Assembly: GCA_965243395.1 (NCBI GenBank)
Contig: CBDEUS010000002.1
Span: 1,216,001-1,280,000, forward strand
Length of the DNA: 64,000 bases
Direction: 5' to 3'
Source: Gammaproteobacteria bacterium
GTDB lineage: Bacteria; Pseudomonadota; Gammaproteobacteria; UBA4575
The translations under genes were made by a program, and so were the position numbers. The notes beneath the pieces are model-generated. The model did not search any database. It worked only from the letters and a program-made list of their open reading frames with translations, and had not been told where the DNA came from. Shown piece after piece: positions 3,225 through 25,245 of the stretch. Numbering within the stretch: position 1 is the first letter of the stretch; the number at the start of each line of letters is the position of its first letter.

Positions 3225-3360
3225 AGTTAGTGTAAACAGCTGTGATCTTTAATAAATTTCAATCAGTTAACAAGCGTATTTAAAAATAACATCCAAAATA
3301 CTTGCTGATTCAACTATTTTATATATGTAGAATTTGACAATAAATGTTTATGAGTTGGAC

Positions 3361-6300: not shown

Positions 6301-6984
6301 CCGCAACTTCCTACGATTACATCGCCGACCGATGGCTCCACGTTTACGGGAAGCAGCGTGACCTTCATGTGGGATGCGATGGGCACGCCGGTGAGTGAAT
6401 GGTGGATCAACTTAGGCAGCACCTTGGGTGGGCGCGACATTCATGTGAGTGGATCGTTGGGCAGTGCCACGAGTGTCACGATTAACAACATCCCTGTGGA
6501 TGGCAGCACAGTGTATGCACGGTTATGGTATCGCAACGGTGGCGGTTCATGGCAATCACAAGACTTTACGTACACTGCTGCTACTATATTTGTTGGCGTT
6601 TATTCAATGAGTGGGACCAATGTAGATAGCGGTTGTCAAGATCCGTCAGATAATGGCGTGACAACTCTAGCAGGTAGTTTCTCGATACCGAGTCAATCCA
6701 GCAATGCATTTGTAGGGACTTTTGATGTAGAGACACTTGATGGAATTGTACTTTCGCAGACAGGAATAAGTATTACTGGCACATTTAATTCAAATTATAC
6801 ATCTGCAACTAACATTTCAGGTACCTATGTATTCGAGGCAAATGAAGGTGTAAATTTGTTAGCGAGAAACGAAGGGACATTTACGGCAAACTTAATCGGA
6901 AATCAATTCTCAATCAGTTACTCAGGTATGGATACAGTAGGCGATGTTTGTCAAAGTACTGGGGGATTATCAGGGCGTACTTAA
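3361..6984 (+). CDS. Large secreted multidomain surface protein (signal peptide, Cys-pair beta domain, DUF11-like domain, beta domain, six 98-aa Trp-rich repeats, C-terminal beta domain); putative adhesin
   Basis: MKFFTKFK...SANATYA signal peptide from ATG 3361. DLSISN..VGEDIIYTIDVSN..DVTVTDSLPSGLNFIS..ITCSLGDL is DUF11-like. Six repeats PTITSPTDGST...WQSQDFTYTA. Confidence 0.8.
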   Translation: MKFFTKFKIAINLLLIFLLFSANATYAATIIVLDSEPGDFVGAGQLIIRDTTDGTFTTMRANSSHVNIRMSGTGTFWGLDFEAIEGQELVPGTYLNATRYPFNPTNVNGLSVSGDGRGCNQLSGQFTVLEAVYNSSDGSVQSFAADFEQHCENAIPALFGQVRFNSNVPLSINVDYDLSISNLASKENYLVGEDIIYTIDVSNLHTTVARDVTVTDSLPSGLNFISVTPSIGNCTGGINITCSLGDLNPGVSASINLVTRAQSTGNFFNTVSVSASGINLNDSNDNFTEVVTVNPLPLTENLYPLTERNHWTYLQDGGLNYTETVTDVGVTFNGQTTVSVLDSDGDTTYYSNDQNGLLEHGFKDNSGDIATLTPPVKILNAQPQIGDIINSGGTAQFNLSSQGLGTFDFLYTATSEVLGVEQVSVPFGSLIAVKVQLTAMISGNVQGIPFNESSIDTIWFVEDVGYVKNIVNDQDDFSTTTFELFSFETLPPPPTITSPTDGSTFTGSSVTFMWDAMGTPVSEWWINLGSTLGGRDIHVSGSLGSATSVTINNIPVDGSTVYARLWYRNGGGAWQSQDFTYTAFTGPPPQLPTITSPTDGSTFTGSSVTFMWDAMGTPVSEWWINLGSTLGGRDIHVSGSLGSATSVTINNIPVDGSTVYARLWYRNGGGSWQSQDFTYTAFTGPPPQLPTITSPTDGSTFTGSSVTFMWDAMGTPVSEWWINLGSTLGGRDIHVSGSLGSATSVTINNIPVDGSTVYARLWYRNGGGAWQSQDFTYTAFTGPPPQLPTITSPTDGSTFTGSSVTFMWDAMGAPVSEWWINLGSTLGGRDIHVSGSLGSATSVTINNIPVDGSTVYARLWYRNGGGAWQSQDFTYTAFTGPPPQLPTITSPTDGSTFTGSSVTFMWDAMGTPVSEWWINLGSTLGGRDIHVSGSLGSATSVTINNIPVDGSTVYARLWYRNGGGAWQSQDFTYTAFTGPPPQLPTITSPTDGSTFTGSSVTFMWDAMGTPVSEWWINLGSTLGGRDIHVSGSLGSATSVTINNIPVDGSTVYARLWYRNGGGSWQSQDFTYTAATIFVGVYSMSGTNVDSGCQDPSDNGVTTLAGSFSIPSQSSNAFVGTFDVETLDGIVLSQTGISITGTFNSNYTSATNISGTYVFEANEGVNLLARNEGTFTANLIGNQFSISYSGMDTVGDVCQSTGGLSGRT
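4840..6569 (+). repeat. Intragenic tandem repeat, 294-bp unit x ~5.9 copies
   Basis: Units start at 4840, 5134, 5428, 5722, 6016 and 6310. Only single-base differences were seen, at 5371, 5607, 5797 and 6547. Confidence 0.98.
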
Positions 6985-10599: not shown

Positions 10600-11538
10600 T
10601 TATATTTGCTGTCTGGAAAGTAAGCGTCTTGCAACGGACCGCAAGTATCGCCCAGAATTTAAATCAAATTTCTTTTTAAATGCTGGTGGTAAACACCGGC
10701 AAAGAATAGATTCAATAGCGTAGGAAATACGTAAAGTACGCAATCCCTGGCGGTAAGCTTTGCGATCAGAAATGCTGTAGTGCTTTCCCATCAATTGAAA
10801 AGCTTGAATGGAAATCTTAACAGTTTCTTTTCTAGGTGCTCCACTGGATAGTCCCTGTGAATGTATTCGGTAAAATCCCATTACCTCATCGATAAAGCCA
10901 TAATCACCATGTAATAGATTGCCTGTATGTAAAAGTATGTCACCAATAAGTGACTTCTTGAACCAATCCGGAGCAACATTCTCACGATTACGAAACACAA
11001 CACTCAGTACTGGTGAAAAAACTCCATAGCGTAGTAAGTAATCGAGAGAATATTGCTCTCTACGTATTGGTGGGTACCCCATATCTGAACATATGATTTC
11101 GTCGTTTTCGTTTACTTGCCCAACTTTATGATAACAGCCTGATAAGTTCGGATGATTTTCAAGATAACTTATCTGTTTTTGTAGTTTTTGATCATTACTC
11201 CAAAAATCATCGCCATCACATAAAGCGATATACTTTCCACGACATGCTCTTAATGTCTCAATATAATTAAATTGCCAGTTGCCGATGCAACCCTCGCGAT
11301 TCGGATCGTCACGTTTGCGTTCAAAAAGCCGAATGGTATCGGGATAGTTGCTCGCATACTTTTGACAAACTTCCCTTGTTCCATCATTTGAGTCGTCTTC
11401 ACCTAAGCATATTTCAAAACTAAAGTTGGTTTTTTGACAAAGGATACTATCGAGACATTTACTGATGTAGTTGACATGATTATAAGTGATGACCCACACG
11501 CTCACTAAAGGTGGATCGTTCTTTAGATGAACATTCAT
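10600..11538 (-). CDS. Glycosyltransferase family 2
   Basis: PLVSV..ITYNH, EDDSNDGT, GKYIALCDGDDFW (DxD), YRIH. Confidence 0.9.
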   Translation of the reverse strand: MNVHLKNDPPLVSVWVITYNHVNYISKCLDSILCQKTNFSFEICLGEDDSNDGTREVCQKYASNYPDTIRLFERKRDDPNREGCIGNWQFNYIETLRACRGKYIALCDGDDFWSNDQKLQKQISYLENHPNLSGCYHKVGQVNENDEIICSDMGYPPIRREQYSLDYLLRYGVFSPVLSVVFRNRENVAPDWFKKSLIGDILLHTGNLLHGDYGFIDEVMGFYRIHSQGLSSGAPRKETVKISIQAFQLMGKHYSISDRKAYRQGLRTLRISYAIESILCRCLPPAFKKKFDLNSGRYLRSVARRLLSRQQI

Positions 11539-11541
11539 TAA

Positions 11542-12525
11542 TTATTTGAAAAGGGGGGCTTTTCGTGACAATGCGTTTAAAATACGTTTGGCAACGGGAA
11601 TAGGGCCATGTGAACAACCTAAAAGAAGCATTTCTCTACACCTGCCGCGTAAAGTTACGCGTTCGTCTAGTCTTGAATAATAACGTTTAATAACGCGTAT
11701 TGCGCGCTGTTTGTTTAGTTCTCCATTATTTTGTATAAATCGTTGATTAACTGGACGTCTGTCTTGTACTTCGGGTAAGCGTCGCCAATCATCGTAGTAT
11801 GATAGGTATTGCTCAGGTTTAGAAGGAATCATAACTTTTAATCCATTATATTCGATATCTTTAAGAGGAAAAATATCTGTGTAACGATGATGTTGCATGG
11901 TATTTTCACGAGTAAAGTTATTAACGCAAAGTTCTTCAGGTTTGCAATTTTCACTTCTTGCCAGCAATTCAGCAGCATAGTCATTATAATAGTAATTTCT
12001 GAATTCTTTTTTTTCCTTACGGCTTAATGTTGGTTGTGAAGAATTTATCTTAAATCCGGTCGAGCAGTATGTCAGCATTTGGGACATTTCTCGTTCTTTA
12101 GAAATATCTTCAGGGGTATTTGGAAAAATTTTCATTGGAGCAATATCTATTCGCACTGGTAACCACCCTGGCGCCGCCATTACAAGCACTTGTAACGAGC
12201 CGAAGTATTCTGCCCATAATCGACCACTGTCCTCAGGATAAAAGAAAAGCAAGCGGCTATCATCTAATTTACAACGTTTGTGGAGAAGAGGGATAAGCTG
12301 ATCAAAATCTTCTTTGGGGACACATATATCCATATCGTCATCCCATGGAATAGGCTTTCCATGTCTCATTGCACCAATTAACGTACCACCATCCAACCAA
12401 TAAGAGAGATTATTTTCACGACAAACTTCGTCGACAATTGCTAATTGACCTAACAGCTGTTCTTGCATCTCCTCTAAGCCATCAATCGTGTAATACTCCA
12501 ATCCATCTTTGTTGATTAATTTCAT
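11542..12525 (-). CDS. LicD-family phosphotransferase (CDP-alcohol donor to glycan)
   Basis: YWLDGGTLIGAMRHGKPIPWDDDMDI signature; C-terminal DIFPL...IPSKPEQYL..Y.DW. Confidence 0.9.
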   Translation of the reverse strand: MKLINKDGLEYYTIDGLEEMQEQLLGQLAIVDEVCRENNLSYWLDGGTLIGAMRHGKPIPWDDDMDICVPKEDFDQLIPLLHKRCKLDDSRLLFFYPEDSGRLWAEYFGSLQVLVMAAPGWLPVRIDIAPMKIFPNTPEDISKEREMSQMLTYCSTGFKINSSQPTLSRKEKKEFRNYYYNDYAAELLARSENCKPEELCVNNFTRENTMQHHRYTDIFPLKDIEYNGLKVMIPSKPEQYLSYYDDWRRLPEVQDRRPVNQRFIQNNGELNKQRAIRVIKRYYSRLDERVTLRGRCREMLLLGCSHGPIPVAKRILNALSRKAPLFK

Positions 12526-12528
12526 TAT

Positions 12529-13206
12529 TTAAGTTTTTGGTTGGCCGAAATACTCTGATTGTTTTTCGCGATTGAAATTTCTATACAAGTAATCTAGATC
12601 TTGTGGCGTGTCAATTTCAAAGACATCAACAACTTCCGCAGCAATTGGCAACATTTTCTCAACTTCGTTATAAACAAAATTTGCATGTGGTGAAATTTGT
12701 AAATCTGAAAAATATGCAATTCCACACCATTCAAATTTATCAGGGGGACTTCTGCGGAAAGCTTCAATCATCTGTTGTTTTTTATTTAGCTCAACGAACA
12801 CTGCTTCTTGTGTAAATGATTCAGAAATACCGATTAGATTTCGGTGTTTACTGCAACTTTCTACAAAATGGAGAAACGAGTCTGGCTCAACATACATATC
12901 TCCATCTATAGATAAATAAGGTTCTGTGAGATCACGTGTTGCTAAATATAGACTGTATGCATTTGTGCTATTTGCATAGTTAGGATTCCTTACGAAAGTA
13001 ACGTCGGGGCGAAGTGCACGAACATAGTCAATGACTTGTTGTTCCTTAAAACCAACTACTATTCTGATATCAGGTACATTATTGAGAAGTTGCAACAAGT
13101 AGTAAATTAGACAGTGACCTTCAAGCTCTACCAAACATTTTGGTATATCTAGCCCTAACCTGTTACCTAATCCTGCAGCGGATATTACAGCATGTTTTAT
13201 TTCCAT
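12529..13206 (-). CDS. NTP transferase (LicC-like cytidylyltransferase)
   Basis: ISAAGLGNRLG..PKCL, VVGF, NPNY..TN.AYSL, DGD, FEIDTPQDL. Confidence 0.85.
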   Translation of the reverse strand: MEIKHAVISAAGLGNRLGLDIPKCLVELEGHCLIYYLLQLLNNVPDIRIVVGFKEQQVIDYVRALRPDVTFVRNPNYANSTNAYSLYLATRDLTEPYLSIDGDMYVEPDSFLHFVESCSKHRNLIGISESFTQEAVFVELNKKQQMIEAFRRSPPDKFEWCGIAYFSDLQISPHANFVYNEVEKMLPIAAEVVDVFEIDTPQDLDYLYRNFNREKQSEYFGQPKT

Positions 13207-13209
13207 TGC

Positions 13210-13818
13210 TTAAGGATTCCTTAATGTTGTTAATATGTTTAATAGACCATTTGGATGATAAGTTACAAAATCTGCCATTTTAATCAGAGTTTCAACCGGG
13301 TCATGAACTCCGCCATAAGCTATGCGTATGTCTGCTGCCTCAAATAGGGGAGTATCATTCATACCATCTCCTACAGCTACAATCTCGTCATATGAACTTT
13401 TTAATTCTTGAATGGCTTCGGACTTATTAATAATACGTGCAACACCCAGAAGTTTGTCATCCTCCCATTCTGCATCAGAGCTGAAAACTTTGCATTTCAA
13501 TTTAGGTTTAAGATCATCAATCCAAACATTCAGGTTGCCCGTAACTACGTAACAGTCAGTTTGGTTAGCATGTAAAAATTCTAAAAGACATTGTTCTATG
13601 GGTACGCCGGATATAATACGACGTACTTTAGAAATAGGAACTTCCGATAACAACCTCACACGTAAGCGAAACGAGTTCTCAAAAGGCAACAATCCTTCCA
13701 TTGTTGCTCGAGTCAAAGTGGAAATTTCTTCGAATAAGCCAATTTCTTTGGCTAGCATTGGAAGTATTTCCTCTGAAGTAAGTGTTCCATCCAGATCAAA
13801 ACAAAATGCTCTTTTCAT
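13210..13818 (-). CDS. HAD-IB family phosphatase/phosphotransferase (SerB/ThrH-like)
   Basis: FDLDGT (motif I), T..TMEG.LPF..SFRLRV cap, VTG (motif II), GDGMND (motif IV). Confidence 0.88.
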   Translation of the reverse strand: MKRAFCFDLDGTLTSEEILPMLAKEIGLFEEISTLTRATMEGLLPFENSFRLRVRLLSEVPISKVRRIISGVPIEQCLLEFLHANQTDCYVVTGNLNVWIDDLKPKLKCKVFSSDAEWEDDKLLGVARIINKSEAIQELKSSYDEIVAVGDGMNDTPLFEAADIRIAYGGVHDPVETLIKMADFVTYHPNGLLNILTTLRNP

Positions 13819-13825
13819 AAGAGAT

Positions 13826-14488
13826 TTATCCTTCAGATATTGCTTTGGTGCAGACGAATAAAAAATGACGAGTGTTAGGCCACTTATTTAACCAGTCGGG
13901 GAATATGTCGTGAAGCTCAACTGTTTCAAATCCAGAATCTAATATTCGTTGCTTTTCGTCCTCGTAATAGCGGTACTCGGCGTAATAGTTAGTATCAAGT
14001 TCTTCAGAAAATCGATCAACAATGACATCTTCCTTTATTCCACAGTGGATGTGCGCAATAAAATGGCCTCCAGGTTTAGTCATATTGAAAATGTTTTGAT
14101 ACAAATCTTGAATAAAACTCCCTTCTAGACATTGAATTACACCGGTTGCAAGAACCAAGTCAAATTGTTTATATAAACGAAATCCTATGATATCGGCATT
14201 GATAAGTTCGAGTTTTTTTGACTGTTGAATATATTGTGAAAAATTCTGAAACTTTTCCACTGCAGTAATATGGCCTACTAATTCGACAAGTTTGTTTACA
14301 ACTAATCCAGTGCCACTACCTAAATCGAGAACTGATAAATCAGGCTTAAGATACGGTCTTAGAAATTCGATTTCTAAATCTGAATAGTCACCTCGCTTAT
14401 TGCGCGTTTGTTGTGGGTCTGTGATCCGATTTGCAAGATTTGCCCAGTATTCTTTTGATATGGTTTTTTCATTTGCTTTCATAATCAT
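13826..14488 (-). CDS. Class I SAM-dependent methyltransferase
   Basis: VLDLGSGTG (motif I), FDLV, KPGG. Start may be 14482. Confidence 0.9.
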   Translation of the reverse strand: MIMKANEKTISKEYWANLANRITDPQQTRNKRGDYSDLEIEFLRPYLKPDLSVLDLGSGTGLVVNKLVELVGHITAVEKFQNFSQYIQQSKKLELINADIIGFRLYKQFDLVLATGVIQCLEGSFIQDLYQNIFNMTKPGGHFIAHIHCGIKEDVIVDRFSEELDTNYYAEYRYYEDEKQRILDSGFETVELHDIFPDWLNKWPNTRHFLFVCTKAISEG

Positions 14489-14523
14489 TAATCTTATGTC
14501 AGTTTATTATTTACCTTGAAGAT

Positions 14524-15834
14524 TTATATAGGGTTATGAGATTTTATATTTATTTTATAAATACTTATAAAAATATATGCGAATAACAACATCATTGCAT
14601 TTAATATTGCGACCGTATACACAACTCCTTCTACAGCAAAAAATTTAGCCGCAAAACTGTAGAAGATTAAGGCCAGTAGTGCAAAAGCTATTTGGATAAC
14701 AGCTAATTTTATTGTTTTCATTTCGGCACGAAGTTTTAATAATAGTTGTTGTGTTATACCATAAAATCCACCTGCCATGATTAGCCATGGGAATATCCAG
14801 CTATACGAGCGAAAATGCTCTCCCATTAGTAATTTAGCCAAAAAGGGGTGTGCAAAAAAAGCAATTATAACAACAAGTAAAACAGTAGCTAATGTTAATG
14901 TACTCAACCGGAACGTGCTCACCATAGCTTCGTCAATAGATTCAATAGTTTTTTCATAAACAATTGGAGCTAAAAATGTTAGTAGAATTCCACTTATGAT
15001 TAGCATCGGAATAAATGCTAATTGATGATAGGCCCCATAGATACCTACATCAGCAATATCGCAAAACCATCCTAATACCCATAGAGGCGACATCAAAAAA
15101 ATCCAGACACCAAAACCTACTATTAGCAAAGGTATAGCATAATTAATAAAAGACTTGCTTAATTGTTTTTGCTTCTCAAAATTTTTATTTTCTTGATTAT
15201 TGCGTAGAAGCTGAAAGCGTACATATAAAATGTGAAAGCAGGCGATAATACCAGCACCTAACAAAAACCCACTCATTGCGAATTCCGCTGATGCGGATCC
15301 AAAATAAATAAAAAAAGCAGCTATACTAAATCGTGTTAGTTCAAAAGAAACACGAAATATTGCGCTGACTTGACGTCGTCTTGCGCCTTCTACTAATCTG
15401 ACTCCAACACCTGAAATGAGCAGTACTATAGAAAAGCCAAATGTTAGCAAATATAAGGGATCTATTACTGGCCAATTTATGTAGCTGACCATTATCGCAC
15501 CTATTGCACAAATTATTGCGCTACCTACCCAGAAACGAAATATAATTTTTCGTAAATCACTTAGCCTATCTTCTGCACGATAAATCGAATAGAAACGCAT
15601 CGATGCACCTCCGACTGCATGCCCTACGACTTGGTCGAAAACTCCGGCAAGACTTATCATCAATGCAAGCCGTCCATATTCAACATGTGAGAGAAAGGTT
15701 GTGAGGAAGCGTGTTCCAGCTAAAACTACACTTATTGAAAAAATCGTACCGAATGCAACCCATAACATCTCACTGTTCATCCGCTTAGCAACTAGCATAA
15801 TATTTTTTATATAACAAATTCTTAGAATAGGCAC
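14524..15834 (-). CDS. Wzx-type oligosaccharide flippase
   Basis: About 12 hydrophobic segments, TRFLT..LS..EYG, FINYAIPL, DVGIY. Start uncertain (15834, 15798 or 15780). Confidence 0.8.
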   Translation of the reverse strand: MPILRICYIKNIMLVAKRMNSEMLWVAFGTIFSISVVLAGTRFLTTFLSHVEYGRLALMISLAGVFDQVVGHAVGGASMRFYSIYRAEDRLSDLRKIIFRFWVGSAIICAIGAIMVSYINWPVIDPLYLLTFGFSIVLLISGVGVRLVEGARRRQVSAIFRVSFELTRFSIAAFFIYFGSASAEFAMSGFLLGAGIIACFHILYVRFQLLRNNQENKNFEKQKQLSKSFINYAIPLLIVGFGVWIFLMSPLWVLGWFCDIADVGIYGAYHQLAFIPMLIISGILLTFLAPIVYEKTIESIDEAMVSTFRLSTLTLATVLLVVIIAFFAHPFLAKLLMGEHFRSYSWIFPWLIMAGGFYGITQQLLLKLRAEMKTIKLAVIQIAFALLALIFYSFAAKFFAVEGVVYTVAILNAMMLLFAYIFISIYKINIKSHNPI

Positions 15835-16617: not shown

Positions 16618-19602
16618 ATGACCGACAGTACTACTACTGATTTTTTTATTCCTAAGGTTCTTTGGGTTTTGTATTTCTGTTTTGCAACTTGTATTGCTCT
16701 TATCTTTCAGAAACTTGTATTACCTATGGTCCCATCATTGCATGCGGGAAGTGGTCTGCTAACTAACGATGCAATATATTTTCATACAATAGCAATAAAT
16801 TTAGCTGACCAAATTCGAGATGACGGTTGGTCTAATTGGTCACTGTGGCCAGCTCAAGGATGCGGGGCGAATGTTGCAGACTTGTCAATATTATATGTTT
16901 TTTTTGAACCTGACCCATCATTAGCTATTCCTATAAATGCTATATTGCACGCAAGTAGTGGTGTACTAATCTACTTAATTGCACATGCAATTTTTCCAGG
17001 ACGTGTTGGCAAATATGCTGGAATCTTTAGTTCAGTCCTTTTTATTGTGTTTCCTTCTAGTCTGAATTGGTATGCGCAGCTTCACAAAGATGGCTACGCA
17101 ATTTTAGGTATTTTAATTGTACTTTATTCATGGGTGCAGTGGACAGCACAAGAATTTAGTGTATCTAGGATTATTTTATTTCTAATTGGGAACATCGCAG
17201 GATGTATTTTAATTTTATCTGTTCGCCCTTATGCATTAGATGTGTTGTTTCTTGCTGTGGCTATATTACTCTTAATTTGTTTTTTTAATATTATTTTAAA
17301 TAAAAACAATATATGGATTAAATTTATAGGAGGTATATTCGCACTATTATTTATTGGGTTGTTTGTATTGTCAGTTCATACGCATAAATTAGGCAATAAT
17401 ATAAATTCCTTTATTTTATCTACTGGCTATAGTTTTAGTAGCGATAACTCTAGTGACGCTAGTTCTAGTAGTGATAGTTCTAGTGGTAATAGTTCTAGTA
17501 GCGAAAATTCTAGTAGCGATGATCAAGTAACGAATAATTGTCCAATCCAAAATGGGTGGCAATGGCAATCAGAAGATCTGGTTCCGGAAAAAATAGATAA
17601 TTTTGCTTATACAGCAGCAAAGGTGAGACTAATATCTATTTGTACAACTTATGAATCCAACTCCATTTACGATAAGCATAAAGCTCCAGATAATATTTTA
17701 AGTCTAGTTGGATACCTGCCAAGAGCAATTCAAATCGGATTATTTGCGCCATTTCCTAATACTTGGTTAAAAGAGATATCAATAACTAAAATAATTGGTT
17801 GGATTGAAATATTTGCATGGTATTTATTAGTTCCCGGAATAATTTATTTATTGTGTCAACGTCAGACTCAACAGATTTGGCTAGTATTAAGTTTTGCATT
17901 AGTTTTTTTGCTTGTGTATAGCTACGTTACTCCAAATCTAGGATCACTGCATCGAATTCGATATCCATTCATAATGCTATTGATGTTACTAGGTGCTTTA
18001 GGTTGGTGTCATTTAATTTTAAAACATTTTTACAGAGAGAACTTCAAGAAAAATATAAAGCAATTCTATCTTGATAATACAGGTGTATCTGCACCGGGAC
18101 GTGCAAAAATTCTTTATGCGGGTTTTTCAGTAGTTGGGTTCACTGCATTTTCTTTTTTATTGCTCTTTTATCGCGATGTTTTGATGGGCCAAAAATTTGG
18201 AGTTGGAACTGAACTTGATGCATTCTTTTTGGCCATGTTGTTACCTATGTTTATTGTAAATGTTTTTAGTATCCCTTTAGGTTCTGCTCTTATCCCGGTT
18301 TACCATAAGTTAAATACATCCTCTCAAAGAGATGCAGAATCGATGCTTTCAACATTGCTGTTCTATTCACTGTCTGGGCTAATATTAATTGGTGGCATGT
18401 TGCTCATTTTAGGAGAGACGATATATCCGAGTATAGTGAGCGATTTAGAAGAAGTTACAATTAGGAGAACATTAGATTTACTGCCTATCGCAGTACTAAT
18501 TCTAGTTTTAAGTATTGTAGTTATATTAGGTAATGCTGTACTCAATGCGAGACAAATTTACAGTTGGCCTGCAATTTTTCAAATTGTTGTTCCAGTTTGT
18601 GCAATCATATCTTTACTCGCATTTGGCAAGGAATTTAATGCAACTAGCGTTGCTGCAGGAATGCTTATTGGACAAATTATTAACTTAATTTTAGTAGTCT
18701 ACTTGTTATATAAAGATAATTTTAGATTAAAACTCAGTTTTCCAAATAAATTTCGAGGTGAAAATTATAACTCATTGTGGCAACTTTATGGTGCACTTGC
18801 TGTAGCTGCGTTATTTGTAAGTGCAGCTGCGGTGATTGATAATATTATGGCTTCTAGCCTTGGAGAAGGCAGTATAGGGGTTTATTCATTAGGAAATAAG
18901 GTAATAATATTTGTAACCGGTGTTATTGGCGCTGGTGTTACTTCAGTTGTATTACCACGATTTTCCGCTTTATTGTCACAAGGAAATATTGAGGGTTGTA
19001 GACGAGATCTTGCTTTTTTTATTTACATAGGAACGGCTATAACTATTCCAGCTGGATTAATATTGTTCGGATTATGTGATGATGTTGTACGTTTAATTTT
19101 TAAAGGCGAAATGATGACTATAGAAGATGCTGACGAAATTGGGCGTGTTGCTATATTTGGGGTTATACAACTTCCATTCTTTGTTTCACATGCCTTGCTA
19201 ATTAAGTTTGCTAATGCGAAACAAAAGGGAAGAATAGTTGTAATTACAGCCGCATTTGGTCTTTTGTTAAATATTGTATTAAATATTTTCTTAATGCGTG
19301 AAATTGGTGTAGCAGGTCTTGCGCTTGCAACAACGTTGTCTATGTTAGTGACCAGTTTTATCCTTTTAGCTATTATTATGAGACTCGGTTATCTCAGACC
19401 TCTCGAAATCGTATTAATCTCACTTTCGTGGGGGCTTTATTTAACTACTATATTATGTATATATTTTCGAAGTTATGCTGGAGTCGTAGTTTCTATTATT
19501 GCAATGATAATATTATTATGGGAAATTTGGATGATAAATCGAGAAAATGCTTCAAAAAGTGGGCCTAGGTTTTACTGGTTAAAAAACAGCTTTAGTTCTT
19601 AA
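16618..19602 (+). CDS. Fusion membrane protein: N-terminal Wzy/O-antigen ligase-like polytopic domain + C-terminal MurJ/MviN-like flippase
   Basis: aa ~1-470: multi-TM, DAIYFH, FPSSLNWYAQLHKDG, large loop, NLGSLHRIRYP. aa ~495-930: RDVLMGQKFGVGTELDAFFLA, IDNIMASSLGEGSI, TSVVLPRFS, IGVAGLALATTLS (MurJ-like). Confidence 0.75.
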   Translation: MTDSTTTDFFIPKVLWVLYFCFATCIALIFQKLVLPMVPSLHAGSGLLTNDAIYFHTIAINLADQIRDDGWSNWSLWPAQGCGANVADLSILYVFFEPDPSLAIPINAILHASSGVLIYLIAHAIFPGRVGKYAGIFSSVLFIVFPSSLNWYAQLHKDGYAILGILIVLYSWVQWTAQEFSVSRIILFLIGNIAGCILILSVRPYALDVLFLAVAILLLICFFNIILNKNNIWIKFIGGIFALLFIGLFVLSVHTHKLGNNINSFILSTGYSFSSDNSSDASSSSDSSSGNSSSSENSSSDDQVTNNCPIQNGWQWQSEDLVPEKIDNFAYTAAKVRLISICTTYESNSIYDKHKAPDNILSLVGYLPRAIQIGLFAPFPNTWLKEISITKIIGWIEIFAWYLLVPGIIYLLCQRQTQQIWLVLSFALVFLLVYSYVTPNLGSLHRIRYPFIMLLMLLGALGWCHLILKHFYRENFKKNIKQFYLDNTGVSAPGRAKILYAGFSVVGFTAFSFLLLFYRDVLMGQKFGVGTELDAFFLAMLLPMFIVNVFSIPLGSALIPVYHKLNTSSQRDAESMLSTLLFYSLSGLILIGGMLLILGETIYPSIVSDLEEVTIRRTLDLLPIAVLILVLSIVVILGNAVLNARQIYSWPAIFQIVVPVCAIISLLAFGKEFNATSVAAGMLIGQIINLILVVYLLYKDNFRLKLSFPNKFRGENYNSLWQLYGALAVAALFVSAAAVIDNIMASSLGEGSIGVYSLGNKVIIFVTGVIGAGVTSVVLPRFSALLSQGNIEGCRRDLAFFIYIGTAITIPAGLILFGLCDDVVRLIFKGEMMTIEDADEIGRVAIFGVIQLPFFVSHALLIKFANAKQKGRIVVITAAFGLLLNIVLNIFLMREIGVAGLALATTLSMLVTSFILLAIIMRLGYLRPLEIVLISLSWGLYLTTILCIYFRSYAGVVVSIIAMIILLWEIWMINRENASKSGPRFYWLKNSFSS
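17431..17520 (+). repeat. Degenerate 15-bp tandem repeat x6 encoding a Ser-rich linker
   Basis: agttttagtagcgat|aactctagtgacgct|agttctagtagtgat|agttctagtggtaat|agttctagtagcgaa|aattctagtagcgat. Confidence 0.9.
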
Positions 19603-19743: not shown

Positions 19744-20889
19744 ATGAAGATTGCAATAGTTGTATCTAGCCCAATGACAATCAAAGCATTCTTGCATGAT
19801 CTAATCATACGTCTGTCCGAGATCTCTGAAGTTACTGTTGTAGCAAATATTTCAAATCCTAAAGATCTAGTAGTGCTTGAAAATAGTGCAAAAATTGTTA
19901 GTGTCAAAATTGTCCGTAAGATTGCACTTTTTACAGATGTGAAAGCACTGTTAACATTATTGAGTTTATTCAGGAGAAATAAGTATGATCTAGTTTATTC
20001 AGTTACTCCAAAAGCAGGGTTACTAGCAATGACTGCTAGTTTTTTAGCTCGGATTAATTGCAGAATTCATATATTTACCGGACAAGTTTGGGTAATGAAG
20101 CGTGGAGTAAGGCGATTATTTTTAAAAATTGTGGATAAACTAATTGTAAGATTAGCTACCAACGTATTAGCAGATAGTATCAGCCAAAGTAAATTCTTAA
20201 TTAACGAAAATGTAGTTAATTCAAATAAGATTGCAGTATTGGCTAATGGTTCAATTAGTGGGGTTAACTTAAAACGATTTTGTAAGGACGAAAATATTAG
20301 AAATGAAGTTCGCGAGCAATTAAATATTGATAAAAATGAGTTAGTATTTTTATTTCTTGGTAGGCTTGATCCTGATAAGGGGATACTTGATTTAGTAGAT
20401 GCATTTAGTCTGATCTATAATCGATATAAATTTGTCAGGCTTGTTATTGTTGGGCCTGATGAAGCAGGAATATGCAGTCAAATTGATTCGAAAATTCCGT
20501 CTAAAACTAATAATATAATTTTCGTAGATTTTACAAATCGACCAGAGTCGTACATGAATGCGGCTGATGTTATTTGTCTCCCCAGTTATAGAGAAGGTTT
20601 TGGTAGTGTTGTGATTGAAGCAGCTGCAATAGGTATACCTGCAATAGGTAGCAATATTTACGGTATAAGAGATGCAATAGAAGATGGAGTAACTGGCATT
20701 TTATATCCTCCTCGAGATAAAAAGGCACTATATTCAGCAATGCAAAAACTTATTTTAGAACCGGAGACAAGAATACGATTTGGTGTTGCAGCACAAAAAC
20801 GTGCCAAGCGTTTATTTTCACAGAATCTTGTAACTTCATCTTATATAGACTATTTCAAACAAGCAGTAGATAGTTGTATTTCTCGATGA
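19744..20889 (+). CDS. Glycosyltransferase family 4 (CapM/PglA-like)
   Basis: TPKAGLL, FTG, NGSISGV, FLGRL..DKG, LPSYREGFG..VIEAAA (EX7E). Confidence 0.9.
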   Translation: MKIAIVVSSPMTIKAFLHDLIIRLSEISEVTVVANISNPKDLVVLENSAKIVSVKIVRKIALFTDVKALLTLLSLFRRNKYDLVYSVTPKAGLLAMTASFLARINCRIHIFTGQVWVMKRGVRRLFLKIVDKLIVRLATNVLADSISQSKFLINENVVNSNKIAVLANGSISGVNLKRFCKDENIRNEVREQLNIDKNELVFLFLGRLDPDKGILDLVDAFSLIYNRYKFVRLVIVGPDEAGICSQIDSKIPSKTNNIIFVDFTNRPESYMNAADVICLPSYREGFGSVVIEAAAIGIPAIGSNIYGIRDAIEDGVTGILYPPRDKKALYSAMQKLILEPETRIRFGVAAQKRAKRLFSQNLVTSSYIDYFKQAVDSCISR

Positions 20890-21476
20890 AACGAATATTC
20901 GACATAATTATTACTGTTATACTTTTTGTATTGCTAAGCTTTATATTCATTGTCATTGCTTTTCTGATACTCATTACTCTCGGCAAACCCATATTGTTTA
21001 CTCAAATGCGTCCAGGTCTTAATGGCGAGCTTTTCAAGATTTATAAATTTCGAACCATGAAAATAAAATATGACAAAAATGGAATGCCATTGCATGATAG
21101 TCAAAGACTTACACGATTTGGTGCTTGGTTAAGACGCACCAGCTTGGATGAATTACCAACTTTATGGAATGTTCTGTGTGGTCATATGAGTTTAGTAGGG
21201 CCAAGACCTTTGCTAATTGAGTATCTTTCTTTATATTCGCCTGAACAAAAGCGAAGGCATAACGTTAAGCCAGGAATAACAGGCTGGGCGCAAGTTAATG
21301 GTAGAAATGCAGTCAGCTGGGAAGAGAAATTCAAACTAGATGTATGGTATGTGGAAAACCATAATTTTTGTTTGGACCTTAAGATTTTATTTTTAACTAT
21401 AATTGCTGTGTTTAAATCTACGGGAATAACCCAAGAAGGGCATGTAACAACAGAAAAGTTTCGAGGTTCAAATTGA
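20886..21476 (+). CDS. Monotopic initiating phosphoglycosyl transferase (PglC-like)
   Basis: MKRIFD, FTQMRPG, KFRTM, SLDELP, MSLVGPRP, KPGITGWAQVNGRN; ATG 20886 overlaps the GT4 stop. Confidence 0.92.
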   Translation: MKRIFDIIITVILFVLLSFIFIVIAFLILITLGKPILFTQMRPGLNGELFKIYKFRTMKIKYDKNGMPLHDSQRLTRFGAWLRRTSLDELPTLWNVLCGHMSLVGPRPLLIEYLSLYSPEQKRRHNVKPGITGWAQVNGRNAVSWEEKFKLDVWYVENHNFCLDLKILFLTIIAVFKSTGITQEGHVTTEKFRGSN

Positions 21477-22102
21477 AACCCAAGTTATTAATTGTTGGAG
21501 CAGGAGGGCATGGGTCTGTAGTTGCTGATGCTGCTATTGAACAGAACATATGGTCTGAAATTGCTTTTTTAGATGATAATGTAAATGAGCCTAGCATAGT
21601 GAATGACATACCTGTTTTAGGGGTAATTGCTGATATACATAAGTATTCTGGTCAATTTGGAGATTTGGCAATAGCTATTGGCGATAATATTCTTAGGATG
21701 AAACTAATAGAAGAATTTATAAATAGTGACTTTTGTTTACCGGTCATTTCTCACCCAAAGGCAATTGTTAGTAAAAATTCAGAAATTGGGCCAGGCACAT
21801 TTTTAGCAGCGAACGCTGTAATCAATGCAGGGTCCACGTTGGGTAAAGGTTGCATAATAAACACTGCTGCAACTGTTGATCATGACAATATTTTGTCAGA
21901 TGGTGTGCATGTATCTCCAGGTGCTCACCTTGGCGGAAATGTGGTAGTCGGGAAGTGTAGCTGGATTGGAATTGGCGCGAGTATTAGGGAACAAGTTTCC
22001 ATAGGCGAGAATGTAATCATTGGTGCAGGTGCAGCAGTCGTGGAGAACGTAGGTAATTCTTTGCAAATGCTGGGTGTACCAGCCCGCCCAAATGAGAAGT
22101 AA
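21473..22102 (+). CDS. UDP-4-amino-sugar N-acetyltransferase (PglD/NeuD family)
   Basis: GAGGHG, AIGDN..R, HP.A, INTAATVDHD, hexapeptide repeats, GVPAR. Confidence 0.9.
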   Translation: MKPKLLIVGAGGHGSVVADAAIEQNIWSEIAFLDDNVNEPSIVNDIPVLGVIADIHKYSGQFGDLAIAIGDNILRMKLIEEFINSDFCLPVISHPKAIVSKNSEIGPGTFLAANAVINAGSTLGKGCIINTAATVDHDNILSDGVHVSPGAHLGGNVVVGKCSWIGIGASIREQVSIGENVIIGAGAAVVENVGNSLQMLGVPARPNEK

Positions 22103-22104
22103 AG

Positions 22105-23337
22105 ATGTCGCCTATAGTTAAAAATGATTCTCTTGCGATTGAGGGAGGTGATTGTGAAGTTAGTCGTTCATTCCCTGCTTGGCCACAATATTCGAGTGAA
22201 GAAATTAAGGCTGTTACAGATGTACTAGTATCCGGAAAAGTTAATTATTGGACAGGTAATGTAGGTAAAACTTTTGAAAATGAGTTTGCAAACTATTTTG
22301 GATTAAAACATGCCGTTGCATTATCAAATGGTAGTGTTGCACTTGAAGTTGCTTTGAAAGCTCTAAAAATTGGTGAAGGTGATGAAGTGATAGTTACGCC
22401 ACGCACATTCATTGCTTCGGCTAGTAGTATATCTATTTGTGGGGCAACCCCGGTTTTTGTAGATGTTGATAGAGAAAGTCAAAACATAACTGCAGAAACA
22501 ATCCAAACTGCAATCACTAGTAATACAAAAGCTATTTTATTAGTGCATTTAGCAGGCTGGCCTTGTGAAATGGATACAATAATTGATATAGCTCACCGTC
22601 ATAATCTAAAAGTAATAGAAGATTGTGCCCAGGCGCATGGTGCAAAATATAATACTCAATATGTTGGCACATTTGGTAACGTGGCTACATTTTCATTTTG
22701 TCAAGACAAAATAATATCTACAGGTGGGGAAGGTGGAATGTTATTAACGAATGACGAGTCTATATGGAGTTTTGCATGGAGCTATAAAGATCATGGAAAG
22801 AATGTAGATTGCCTGAATCATTCTAATGGATTTAATAATAATTTGTTTAGGTGGGTACATGATTCAATTGGGTCTAATTATAGAATGACTGAAATTCAGG
22901 CAGCTATTGGATTAGAGCAGTTGCATAAACTTAATGATTGGGTGCTTCAGCGTCAAAAAAATGCTGAACAGTTAACTAGTTATTTTAAAAATATACCTGC
23001 ATTAAGAGTGACAATACCAAATAAAAATATTGATCATGCGTATTATAAATATTATGTATTTGTTAGAAATAAACTACTAAAACCAGGATGGACAAGAGAT
23101 AAAATTGTCCAGGCAATTAATAAAGAAGGAGTGCCTTGTTTCACAGGCAGCTGTAGTGAGGTATATAAAGAAAAAGCTTTTGTTGATGCAAAAATATTTC
23201 CCAGCAAAGACTTTAAAATTGCAAAAGAGTTAGGAGAGACAAGTCTAATGTTTAATGTCCATCCTATGCTAAATACTCAAGATATTGAGAGTATTTATCA
23301 TGCAGTAAAGAAAGTATTCAACCATGCCTCTATTTAG
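22105..23337 (+). CDS. DegT/DnrJ PLP aminotransferase (bacillosamine pathway, PglE-type function)
   Basis: SGKVNYWTG, IEDCAQAHGA, FSFCQDKIISTGGEGG. Confidence 0.92.
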   Translation: MSPIVKNDSLAIEGGDCEVSRSFPAWPQYSSEEIKAVTDVLVSGKVNYWTGNVGKTFENEFANYFGLKHAVALSNGSVALEVALKALKIGEGDEVIVTPRTFIASASSISICGATPVFVDVDRESQNITAETIQTAITSNTKAILLVHLAGWPCEMDTIIDIAHRHNLKVIEDCAQAHGAKYNTQYVGTFGNVATFSFCQDKIISTGGEGGMLLTNDESIWSFAWSYKDHGKNVDCLNHSNGFNNNLFRWVHDSIGSNYRMTEIQAAIGLEQLHKLNDWVLQRQKNAEQLTSYFKNIPALRVTIPNKNIDHAYYKYYVFVRNKLLKPGWTRDKIVQAINKEGVPCFTGSCSEVYKEKAFVDAKIFPSKDFKIAKELGETSLMFNVHPMLNTQDIESIYHAVKKVFNHASI

Positions 23338-23361
23338 AAATTTTAATTTTATCTTTTAATT

Positions 23362-25245
23362 ATGTCGCTTATTCATAATCGCTGGTTGGCACTTATCCAT
23401 GACATTATTTGGATTCCGCTAGCCTTATTAATTGCATTTTGGGTTAGATTCAATTTAGGAATGATTCCATCGGAATTTTGGCCTGGCATTTATCAAATTA
23501 TTATTGTTTCTCTCGTCGTGCAAACTGCGAGTTATTGGTATTTTGGTTTATATAGGGGTATTTGGAGATTTGCATCGGTTCCTGATATTTTTCGAATATT
23601 AAAAGCAGTCATAATTGGCGTTAGTTTGTCACTTTTAGGGGTATTTTTATTTTCAAGATTAAGTAATTTTCCTCGGTCAATTTTAGTTTTATATCCGCTT
23701 TTTTTATTTTTAGGATTAAGTGCGTCGCGTCTTTTATATAGATGGTATAAAGACAGGGATTTTTATTTTGAGAGCGGTGAAAAAAAACATGTCTTGATCG
23801 TAGGTGCAGGTCAAGCGGGTGAAATGCTTGTAAGAAGTATGTTGCGAGAAAATAAGCTTGTTCCTGTAGGGTTTGTAGATGATGATGTTGGAAAAATAGG
23901 ACGAGATATCCATGGTGTCAGGGTAAAAGACAAAATAGATTCATTAGAGAAAGTAATAAAAAAAATAGATGTGGATTTGGTTATTATCAGCATCAGAAAT
24001 ATTTCTGCGAAACCTTTAAAAAATATTTTACGTGTTTGCAATGATAATAAAATTGATTGTCAAATTATTCCGTCACTTATTGAAATCAGTAGTGATAGTG
24101 TGGATCTCTCATTACTCAGACGAGTTAAAATTGAAGATTTATTAGGTAGAGAATCTGTAAAATTAGATAACCAATTGATTAGAAAGTTTATTAAAGATAA
24201 ATGTATTTTGGTTACGGGAGCAGGTGGCTCTATAGGCTCTGAGTTAAGCAAACAAGTGCTTACATATGCTCCAAACAAACTTATCTTACTTGAGCAAAGT
24301 GAATTTAACTTGTACACGATAAAAAAGAAATTATTCGACCGTGAAGATCTTGGAGAATCAGATGTAATTTCAGTGCTTTGTGATATCAGAGATGATAAAG
24401 CTTTAAATGAAGTGTTTAATAAATACAAACCTCATGTAGTACTTCATGCAGCTGCTTATAAACATGTGCCGATCATTGAGGAAAATATATTTGAAGGCGT
24501 AAAAACTAATATATTTGGAACTAAAAAATTAGCCGAAATAGCTGCTAAAAATAATGTCGATAAGTTTGTGATGGTGTCAACAGATAAAGCGGTTAATCCA
24601 AGTAGTATGATGGGCGCTACTAAACGTGCAGCTGAGATATTTTGTCAAGCATTAAGCAATCAAAATAATACAAAATTTATCACTACCAGATTTGGTAATG
24701 TTTTAGATTCGACAGGATCTGTGGTGCCACTATTTCGTGAGCAAATAAATAATGGAGGGCCGGTTACGGTAACTCATAAAGATATGTCCCGATATTTTAT
24801 GAGTATTCCTGAAGCGGCTAGTTTGATATTGCAAGCAGCTTCTATGGGAGAGGGTGGTGAAATATTTGTGTTAGATATGGGCAATCCGGTAAAGATATAT
24901 GATTTAGCAAGACAAATGATCCGATTATCAGGCTACGACCCTGATCATGATATTAAAATTGAAATTATTGGATTGCGTCCAGGCGAGAAACTATATGAGG
25001 AGCTATTCCATGAGTCAGAGGACTATATTGGGACTGAGCACCCAAAAATATTATTGGCAGCATCTAGGAAAGTAGACTGGGATATTTTTTCGATACAGCT
25101 TGAAAATATTTTAAGTGCCTGTGAAAAACGAGATGCCGATAATCTAATTGAGACTATGAAATCAATAATTCCAGAATATACTAAAGACTATTCAGAATCT
25201 TCTGATAAGATTGCGAAACCAAGTGAGGCGCCTATTATTCACTAA
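23362..25245 (+). CDS. Membrane-bound UDP-GlcNAc 4,6-dehydratase (PglF/WbpM/CapD family)
   Basis: N-terminal TMs, GAGQAG, IEDLLGRE, TGAGGSIGSEL, HAAAYKHVP, STDKAVNP, RFGNVL, GLRPGEKLYEEL. Confidence 0.95.
   Translation: MSLIHNRWLALIHDIIWIPLALLIAFWVRFNLGMIPSEFWPGIYQIIIVSLVVQTASYWYFGLYRGIWRFASVPDIFRILKAVIIGVSLSLLGVFLFSRLSNFPRSILVLYPLFLFLGLSASRLLYRWYKDRDFYFESGEKKHVLIVGAGQAGEMLVRSMLRENKLVPVGFVDDDVGKIGRDIHGVRVKDKIDSLEKVIKKIDVDLVIISIRNISAKPLKNILRVCNDNKIDCQIIPSLIEISSDSVDLSLLRRVKIEDLLGRESVKLDNQLIRKFIKDKCILVTGAGGSIGSELSKQVLTYAPNKLILLEQSEFNLYTIKKKLFDREDLGESDVISVLCDIRDDKALNEVFNKYKPHVVLHAAAYKHVPIIEENIFEGVKTNIFGTKKLAEIAAKNNVDKFVMVSTDKAVNPSSMMGATKRAAEIFCQALSNQNNTKFITTRFGNVLDSTGSVVPLFREQINNGGPVTVTHKDMSRYFMSIPEAASLILQAASMGEGGEIFVLDMGNPVKIYDLARQMIRLSGYDPDHDIKIEIIGLRPGEKLYEELFHESEDYIGTEHPKILLAASRKVDWDIFSIQLENILSACEKRDADNLIETMKSIIPEYTKDYSESSDKIAKPSEAPIIH

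Follow-up and report, generated by a model that had tools for sequence, protein, structure and literature searches.

The window analysed here, a 64,000-nucleotide stretch of a gammaproteobacterial genome, contains six closely packed genes that encode a Wzx flippase, an S-adenosylmethionine (SAM)-dependent methyltransferase (MT), an enzyme of the HAD superfamily, a nucleotidyltransferase (NTP), a LicD protein and a family 2 glycosyltransferase (GT2). We give somewhat better than an even chance to the proposal that this block makes a cytidine diphosphate (CDP)-(N-methyl)-hydroxy-amino acid, probably of threonine, from phosphoserine, and that LicD puts the phosphate on an undecaprenyl-linked glycan before the glycan is flipped; the amino acid, its degree of methylation and the final carrier are likewise inferred. 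The genome to which the window belongs (G000; 2.58 Mb, 100% complete) was compared with that of a congener (G014) and with other loci and contigs (L numbers). The six genes are as follows:

14524..15834, minus strand: Wzx/MOP-type oligosaccharide flippase (PF01943 Polysacc_synt, 5.6e-11; about 10 hydrophobic segments), also heading the block in G014 and L088-L091
13826..14488, minus strand: class I SAM methyltransferase (Pfam, 4e-9), distant FtaC/PA1088 relative, predicted CDP-amino-acid N-methyltransferase
13210..13818, minus strand: HAD-IB enzyme of the FtaA/PA1089 family (Pfam HAD, 5e-10), predicted phosphoserine:hydroxy-amino-acid phosphotransferase
12529..13206, minus strand: cytidylyltransferase of the FtaB/PA1090 family, LicC/PntC superfamily (NTP_transf_3, 1.6e-10)
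11542..12525, minus strand: LicD/fukutin-family phosphotransferase (PF04991, 1.1e-28), predicted (methyl)-amino-acid-phosphate transferase
10600..11538, minus strand: GT2 glycosyltransferase (PF00535, 4e-19), also closing the block in G014, L088 and L089

These open reading frames (ORFs) form an intact operon in the order Wzx > MT > HAD > NTP > LicD > GT2 with intergenic gaps of 35, 7, 3, 3 and 3 bp, and the families are backed by both Pfam and NCBIfam; the tight arrangement described in an earlier, sequence-only reading of this DNA was thus borne out. The likeness to PA1088-PA1090 that the same reading had remarked upon was also confirmed, the MT-HAD-NTP order being that of the Pseudomonas aeruginosa b-type island. 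The Wzx protein probably starts at an ATG 12 codons inside its ORF, at about 15798, judged against its homolog in L089. These six genes recur as a block in G014 (72% DNA identity to the window across 5.8 kb, ssb included) and in two metagenome contigs, L088 and L089, and the block is therefore no assembly artefact. Its G+C content at third codon positions (0.26-0.33) is near that of the adjoining genes (0.21-0.28), so that there is no clear signal of recent transfer. A scan for promoters and terminators gave no excess over shuffled sequences (18 versus 25.6 and 4 versus 4.0).

Two flagellin systems serve as references. In Clostridioides difficile, CDP-threonine and CDP-N-methyl-threonine were detected, and mutants of ftaA and ftaB lack both; CDP-threonine is the only substrate that FtaC methylates, the TagF-like FtaD transfers the head group, and FtaB was not purifiable and was not assayed in vitro (bioRxiv 10.64898/2026.02.12.704994). 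FtaD and FtaB have the UniProt accessions Q18CY0 and Q18CY2. The available parts of three further papers propose FtaA as a phosphoserine:threonine phosphotransferase (PMC10714395), describe PA1088, PA1089 and PA1090 as orthologous to CD0243, CD0241 and CD0242 (PMC4441256) and report N,N-dimethylthreonine phosphate in the P. aeruginosa b-type flagellin glycan (PMC11833859). Our P. aeruginosa reference was a public record with a B-type island (flgL-MT-HAD-NTP-CDP-glycerol-transferase-family gene-fliC), in which the counterparts of PA1088-PA1091 were assigned by order and annotation. Clostridial proxies were taken from a low-GC family in which the HAD enzyme is encoded by 6 of 112 genomes, four of them with fliC-GT2-HAD-NTP-MT-TagF, the published type A order; a set of 399 Clostridia genomes gave two HAD matches. 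The published FliC peptides were found in none of seven clostridial loci (six family members and G360, which is without the trio).

The HAD enzyme of the window is 44% identical over 200 amino acids to the PA1089-position protein of the b-type island and 39-42% identical to the type-A-order proxies (42% in one fliC-GT2-HAD-NTP-MT-TagF cluster). It exceeds the NCBIfam cut-off for HAD-IB and scores 100 bits against a cut-off of 144 for SerB and 17-28 bits for ThrH. In a tree of 85 sequences (FastTree, SH-like supports), its family is monophyletic with respect to 10 SerB-like outgroups (SH 0.87) and the window protein is nested inside. Of the 'SerB/ThrH-like HAD' label given before, the HAD-IB part therefore stands and membership of SerB does not. 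D8, D10, E17, R53 and K132 are invariant in the HAD alignment and the nucleophile motif is retained, as are the positions equivalent to Glu20 and Arg56 of Methanocaldococcus jannaschii phosphoserine phosphatase (the best sequence match in the PDB, albeit at 75 bits only), which we take to bind the amino and carboxyl groups of the substrate. Searching GTDB with an alignment of HAD sequences gave at least 596 pattern matches, of which 179 were confirmed and 80 retained; of the latter, 43 loci (40-57% identity) belong to the HAD family, and the other 37, being weaker, were set aside. In viral contigs, the same kind of search yielded 2 weak matches and no member of this family among 261 pattern matches.

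The nucleotidyltransferase gives a similar picture. It is 41% identical over 207 amino acids to the PA1090-position protein (162 bits) and 33% identical to a clostridial type-A-order proxy, and in a tree of 81 sequences it is nested in the FtaB/PA1090 family. Streptococcus pneumoniae LicC, its best sequence match in the PDB, scores 45 bits over about 110 amino acids; the earlier 'LicC-like' designation is thus correct for the superfamily but not for the closest relative. The model of the protein (predicted local distance difference test, pLDDT, 93) finds PntC as its best fold match (Z 25.6, root-mean-square deviation (rmsd) 2.3, 215 residues aligned). Both window proteins are placed on the Pseudomonas side of their trees, beside a Bacteroidota clade, and both are nearer to the clostridial proxies (39-42% and 33%) than the Pseudomonas proteins are (32% and 31%). 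Genes for the two enzymes stay together at 40 of the 43 listed GTDB loci and are fused into a single ORF in 5 metagenome contigs. A modelled HAD-NTP complex scored 0.87, while none of its 3 controls rose above 0.00, with at least 95% contact agreement between runs and a pLDDT of at least 90 for the partners. Of the solved complexes, 116 of 157 attained the mark used for such scores, as did 2 of 215 mismatched pairs; with the alignments used here, these figures are only approximate. A FtaA-FtaB heterodimer has also been predicted (bioRxiv 10.64898/2026.02.12.704994), and no similar complex was found among the PDB search matches. On the strength of these models, HAD and NTP would probably operate as one unit.

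The methyltransferase is more distant from the reference systems. It shares 26% identity over 116 amino acids with the PA1088-position protein (E 5e-11) and 21-22% with the clostridial type-A-order proteins, and two clades can be distinguished: window-type (42 sequences, a subfamily of about 210 amino acids) and PA1088-type (38 sequences, clostridial proxies included). Columns S161, Y168, Y172, R173 and T206 are shared by both. Forty of the 43 listed GTDB loci have a methyltransferase, 34 of the PA1088 type and 6 of the window type. The identification of the trio with the CD0241-CD0243/PA1088-PA1090 cassette accordingly holds for HAD and NTP, by identity (44% and 41%) and by their trees, and is weaker for the methyltransferase, which is homologous but lies in a separate clade. 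Because of this separate subfamily, threonine and mono-methylation are proposed by analogy, and the predicted methyltransferase activity is the least secure step of the pathway. A window-type methyltransferase was also seen on a Bacillus thuringiensis plasmid (L139:7923-8567), beside genes for a non-ribosomal peptide synthetase, a major facilitator superfamily transporter and a 5'-nucleotidase and without HAD or NTP.

LicD is very probably the transferase of the amino-acid phosphate. Residues G47, G51, R54, P60, W61, D62, D64 and D66 are invariant and D127 nearly invariant among 19 cassette-linked LicD proteins, and the catalytic residues D62, D64 and D127 are intact in the window protein, the model of which has FKRP as top match (PDB 6kaj; Z 13.7, rmsd 3.5, 172 residues aligned; next match Z 8.5). 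The gene adjoins that of the nucleotidyltransferase and encodes the sole LicD of G000; LicD and HAD are confined to the same 2 of 15 genomes of the genus, those with the block, and LicD at E<=1e-15 occurs in just 5 of 300 genomes of the class, G000 included. No PF04464 (TagF family) match exists in G000 or G014, and a custom TagF hidden Markov model (HMM) gave a single 26-bit match in G000, a glycosyltransferase in a pilin/pseudaminic-acid locus. Neither LicD nor GT2 resembles the 1694-amino-acid FgtA-position transferase of P. aeruginosa. A search for other proteins of G000 that could supply LicD with a CDP donor returned 3 PF01467 matches, which were rejected since they resemble CoaD, NadD and HldE, names that we assign presumptively by size and position; genes for CDP-ribitol and phosphonates were not searched by family.

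The same exchange of transferases was seen elsewhere. Among the 43 listed GTDB loci, 26 have only a TagF-like gene, 10 only LicD, 1 both and 6 neither, and these counts did not change with a rebuilt TagF HMM. All 11 LicD genes (supported by Pfam or, for L013, by a local HMM) lie at most 16 bp from a cassette gene; Bacteroidota account for 6 of them and Gammaproteobacteria for 2, the others being from Verrucomicrobiia, Actinomycetota and one unclassified bacterium. Over 59 tips of the NTP tree the transferase label switches at least 9 times (shuffles: mean 17.5, minimum 12; four loci with two transferases left aside), and the swap between LicD and TagF therefore appears to be recurrent and partly inherited. 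In a further set of 48 metagenome loci, picked by their methyltransferase (1 of 49 was dropped, and many contigs are short), 16 have only LicD, 8 only TagF, 3 both and 21 neither. The proposal that LicD stands in place of a TagF-type transferase is thus supported by the sole LicD, the missing TagF match, the locus survey and the co-occurrence of LicD with the block; that it represents a one-off rewiring is not, as the LicD-cassette arrangement recurs in several phyla. L147 was ruled out as a clean case of such a swap by TagF-like fragments and several split ORFs. At some Bacteroidota-like loci (L094, L095 and L100) LicD is followed by a 371-amino-acid protein that scores weakly as TagF-like (47-55 bits) and has no Pfam or NCBIfam match. 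In L014 (10001-12144) the gene after HAD-NTP is of the CDP-alcohol phosphatidyltransferase family, which gives the donor pair a third transferase fold.

The donor itself is, in our view, very likely a CDP-activated amino acid. HAD would shift phosphate from O-phosphoserine to the amino acid; the nucleotidyltransferase, probably complexed with HAD, would use CTP to make the CDP-amino acid, as its family suggests; the methyltransferase would N-methylate the CDP compound, as has been shown for FtaC, of which it is a distant relative; and LicD, replacing the unrelated TagF-fold FtaD, would pass the amino-acid phosphate to a sugar with release of CMP. An Asp/Glu-racemase-family gene stands beside 31 of 36 distant methyltransferase relatives (L100-L135; LicD or TagF is present, and there is one racemase-MT fusion) and beside none of 12 close metagenome relatives, a pattern that argues for an amino-acid substrate and suggests the L form here. 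Racemases also accompany family members at 8 of the 43 listed GTDB loci, and the racemase-linked distant loci suggest a D-amino-acid variant; named homologs of the racemase-linked methyltransferases occur in Helicobacter hepaticus, Campylobacter lari and C. coli. As a separate observation, L137, L138 and L147 have HAD-NTP without a methyltransferase beside a fusion of an NTP-transferase and a class I-II aminotransferase, which is split in L147; both L138 and L147 also have LicD. Some clostridial loci show this pairing, and the fusion could decarboxylate the phospho-amino acid.

Threonine specifically is the probable, albeit less certain, amino acid; it is favoured by analogy because both characterised HAD/NTP systems use threonine and bracket the window proteins. 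The same architecture with another head group, either serine or homoserine or a di- or tri-methylated form, is a variant within our preferred explanation that makes up the sizeable minority share left to amino acids other than threonine, and we regard it as rather unlikely though deserving of attention. The distinct subfamily of the methyltransferase speaks for it, as does the fact that the degree of methylation already differs between the two known systems. Moreover, G000 has serC and, as a weak match in the kinase search, what we take to be a homoserine-kinase-like gene, and phosphoserine and probably phosphohomoserine should therefore be available. However, these two compounds might be activated with no dedicated HAD, yet HAD and NTP remain together at 40 of the 43 loci, and the threonine of the characterised members weighs on the same side.

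A Wzx-flipped glycan is quite likely the acceptor. The Wzx gene, two glycosyltransferase genes and an initiating phosphoglycosyl transferase gene lie in or near the block, and the last of these belongs to a plus-strand group that, with one more neighbour, completes this part of the window:

19744..25245, plus strand: family 4 glycosyltransferase (GT4), initiating phosphoglycosyl transferase, acetyltransferase, aminotransferase and 4,6-dehydratase (Pfam, NCBIfam)
16618..19602, plus strand: 994-amino-acid protein in which a GT-C-like membrane domain is fused to a MurJ-type flippase (MurJ, 6e-46)

The first group, which we take to be a PglC/D/E/F-like set, is the likely source of the undecaprenyl diphosphate (Und-PP) acceptor, to which it is linked by position; these genes also come after the block in G014. 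The interval between ssb and miaB holds differing sets of wzx, sugar-synthesis, glycosyltransferase and initiating-transferase genes in 4 of 4 congeners examined; it is the variable surface-glycan slot of the genus, and the block sits there inverted. LicD, GT2, MT, HAD and NTP have no transmembrane segment, consistent with cytoplasmic modification before flipping, as with LicD and TacF in pneumococcus. Across the listed GTDB loci, a flippase is near 7 of 11 LicD loci as opposed to 2 of 27 TagF loci, and flagellin near 1 of 11 as opposed to 8 of 27. The fliC gene of G000 is on another contig, among what we presume to be flgL-like and flaG/fliD-like genes, with no glycosylation gene beside it. 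A Wzx and Und-PP glycan context rather than a flagellin one, as had been proposed, is hence supported by the content of the slot and by this isolated fliC. We would picture a short Und-PP glycan with a PglC-F-like start, extended by GT4 and GT2 (the latter probably adding the sugar that LicD modifies), modified on the cytoplasmic side, flipped by Wzx and ligated to the lipopolysaccharide (LPS) core or another carrier.

Alternatively, the donor and LicD might act on the LPS core, on a pilin or flagellin glycan or on a Wzy/Wzc exopolysaccharide (EPS), with Wzx and GT2 as mere co-travellers. Besides flagellin, G000 does have loci for a pilin glycan and, separately, for EPS; LicD lies in flagellar loci in L046 and L147, and 4 of the 12 close metagenome contigs, some of them short, have no flippase. 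On the other hand, Wzx and GT2 are within the same tight operon in G000, G014, L088 and L089, fliC is without an adjoining glycosylation gene, and the pilin locus owns a pseudaminic-acid pathway and a flippase-like gene, which makes this alternative improbable. Less probable still is de novo synthesis of phosphocholine or methyl-phosphoethanolamine, in which LicD, in the manner of the Lic pathway, would transfer phosphoethanolamine that had first been synthesised, activated and methylated. The classical role of LicD is that of a choline phosphotransferase, and no PDB sequence matches the nucleotidyltransferase better than LicC; nevertheless the nucleotidyltransferase scores 162 bits to the PA1090-position protein and 45 to LicC, HAD retains its amino-acid-binding positions, there is no decarboxylase gene in the operon, no CobD-type enzyme was found above cut-off in the 15 genomes of the genus, and no PF01633 choline kinase above cut-off in the complete G000 genome (LicB was not searched for). 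The statement that LicA and flagellin are missing from the window thus holds genome-wide for choline kinase, the flagellin being on another contig, and the phosphocholine route that had been mentioned as an alternative is disfavoured. N-methyl-phosphothreonine keeps its carboxylate and is net anionic; the description of the product as a phosphocholine mimic is therefore unsupported, and nothing pointed to host mimicry. Finally, that HAD is a housekeeping phosphoserine phosphatase at an incidental location is hardly credible: G000, where serC is present (C1:318267), has no other SerB-like protein at E<=1e-10, but 13 of 15 genomes of the genus do without any such protein, on which ground a housekeeping SerB was rejected, and HAD falls under the SerB cut-off, apart from the SerB-like outgroups and with NTP at 40 of 43 loci.

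Several observations weigh against a CDP-amino acid passed by LicD to a Wzx-flipped glycan. LicD and a TagF-like gene occur together in L046, L106 and L147 (fragments) and weakly in L094/L095. LicD sequences, at about 25% identity, are too diverged to indicate donor specificity, and their tree (34 sequences, 229 columns) has too little support for a donor to be assigned from it. The window methyltransferase is outside the PA1088/FtaC-type clade, its tree fails to unite window-type and PA1088-type sequences to the exclusion of outgroups, and the Y168/Y172/R173 columns are also present in 2 of 5 outgroup methyltransferases (second methyltransferases of cassette loci). The clostridial comparison was made through type-A-order proxies, not the C. 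difficile 630 proteins themselves. Five of the 7 loci with LicD and a flippase form one Bacteroidota clade, the flippase being recognised in 2 of them by our own HMM alone, and because kin loci are not independent the Fisher values are overstated. The pairing of the block with the Pgl-like genes is positional, as the block is inverted and 3.9 kb away in G000, and no Wzy or Wzz was recognised in the slot, Wzz being below cut-off and Wzy easily missed. PF04932 O-antigen-ligase-family matches lie in the LPS-core and EPS loci of G000.

When set beside the characterised systems, the block would work like FtaABC feeding LicD, yet is outside the flagellin systems, with no TagF-type transferase and no fliC link. 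It shares HAD, NTP and MT with C. difficile FtaABCD (CD0241-CD0244), HAD and NTP being homologous to those of same-order clusters, but LicD, of nucleotidyltransferase fold, takes the position of the TagF-like FtaD, the methyltransferase is from another subfamily, and a flippase and GT2 are found instead of fliC and FgtA. With PA1088-PA1091 it shares the MT-HAD-NTP-transferase order, with identities of 44% for HAD and 41% for NTP (PMC11833859, in part), whereas the methyltransferase is 26% identical over half its length, LicD and GT2 are unlike FgtA, and there is no link to flagellin. S. pneumoniae LicABCD and TacF offer the likeness of a CDP donor, LicD transfer to a glycan and a MOP-family flippase (available parts of PMC13385700 and PMC10434233), and pneumococcal LicD acts on a lipid-linked glycan that is checked by TacF (PMC13385700); choline is imported in that pathway, in contrast to the window, which is without LicA and has a donor predicted from the HAD phosphotransferase and MT. 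FKRP (6kaj) and other polyol-donor enzymes of the LicD/fukutin family, proposed members of which include those of Enterococcus faecalis EPA and Lactococcus lactis YcbG, have the same fold and catalytic motif and several CDP donors, but no amino-acid donor is described in the available parts of PMC7188991 and PMC9574508. LicD is not mentioned in the available passages of PMC1391919, nor in the main text of bioRxiv 10.64898/2026.02.12.704994, supplementary table S1 of which lists partial clusters and may bear on novelty. Literature searches returned no work joining LicD to phosphothreonine, to a methyltransferase, O-antigen cluster or CDP, or to a racemase, phosphoserine phosphatase or nucleotidyltransferase, and CDP-threonine appeared only in three works on flagellin systems; a broader search listed 16 papers, none of which, judged by title and opening of the abstract, deals with this system.

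Some other features were recorded. The GT-C-like/MurJ fusion is present in 1 of 15 genomes of the genus and missing from the block-bearing G014, and is possibly accessory rather than required; a second copy lies at G000:C1:902410-905271, the fusion is beside the block in L089 and L091, and PMT_2 occurs among its Atlas neighbours in 12-71% of members. The pilin glycosylation-like locus of G000 (C2:970398-987920) includes a type IV pilin, a 648-amino-acid membrane protein, glycosyltransferases, PseB and PseI above cut-off and a flippase-like gene, and the separate Wzx/Wzy/Wzc-type EPS locus (C2:861338-889900) has several genes that by eye are sulfotransferase-like. At 3334-6984 on the plus strand of the window, between rplQ and uvrA, is a gene whose 1216-amino-acid product looks secreted and has DUF11 plus six near-identical repeats, each about 95 amino acids long (by eye); the gene is not at this site in G014.

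It is already known that LicD takes several donors, and the CDP-threonine donor pathway has been published; a 2026 preprint gave the first detection of CDP-threonine in cells, and two flagellin systems are known to use the compound. Taken as a whole, it is for us an evenly balanced question whether CDP-amino acids, rather than being a peculiarity of flagella, serve surface glycans in general as a portable donor module, with HAD-NTP (and MT or racemase) plugged into TagF-type transferases, LicD and once a CDP-alcohol phosphatidyltransferase, and whether this LicD would be the first member of the LicD/fukutin family to transfer an amino-acid phosphate, here to a Wzx-flipped glycan. The methyl-amino-acid phosphate so added would be new to the searched literature, and its amino acid or degree of methylation might be new as well. 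A test would be short, since synthetic CDP-threonine and CDP-N-methyl-threonine standards and assays have already been described. If true, CDP-amino-acid chemistry would extend to lipid-linked surface glycans in Gammaproteobacteria, Bacteroidota, Verrucomicrobiota, Actinomycetota and Bacillota, the LicD/fukutin family would gain a new class of donor, and the annotation of LicD, a LicC-like protein and a phosphoserine phosphatase together in a glycan locus need not imply phosphocholine.

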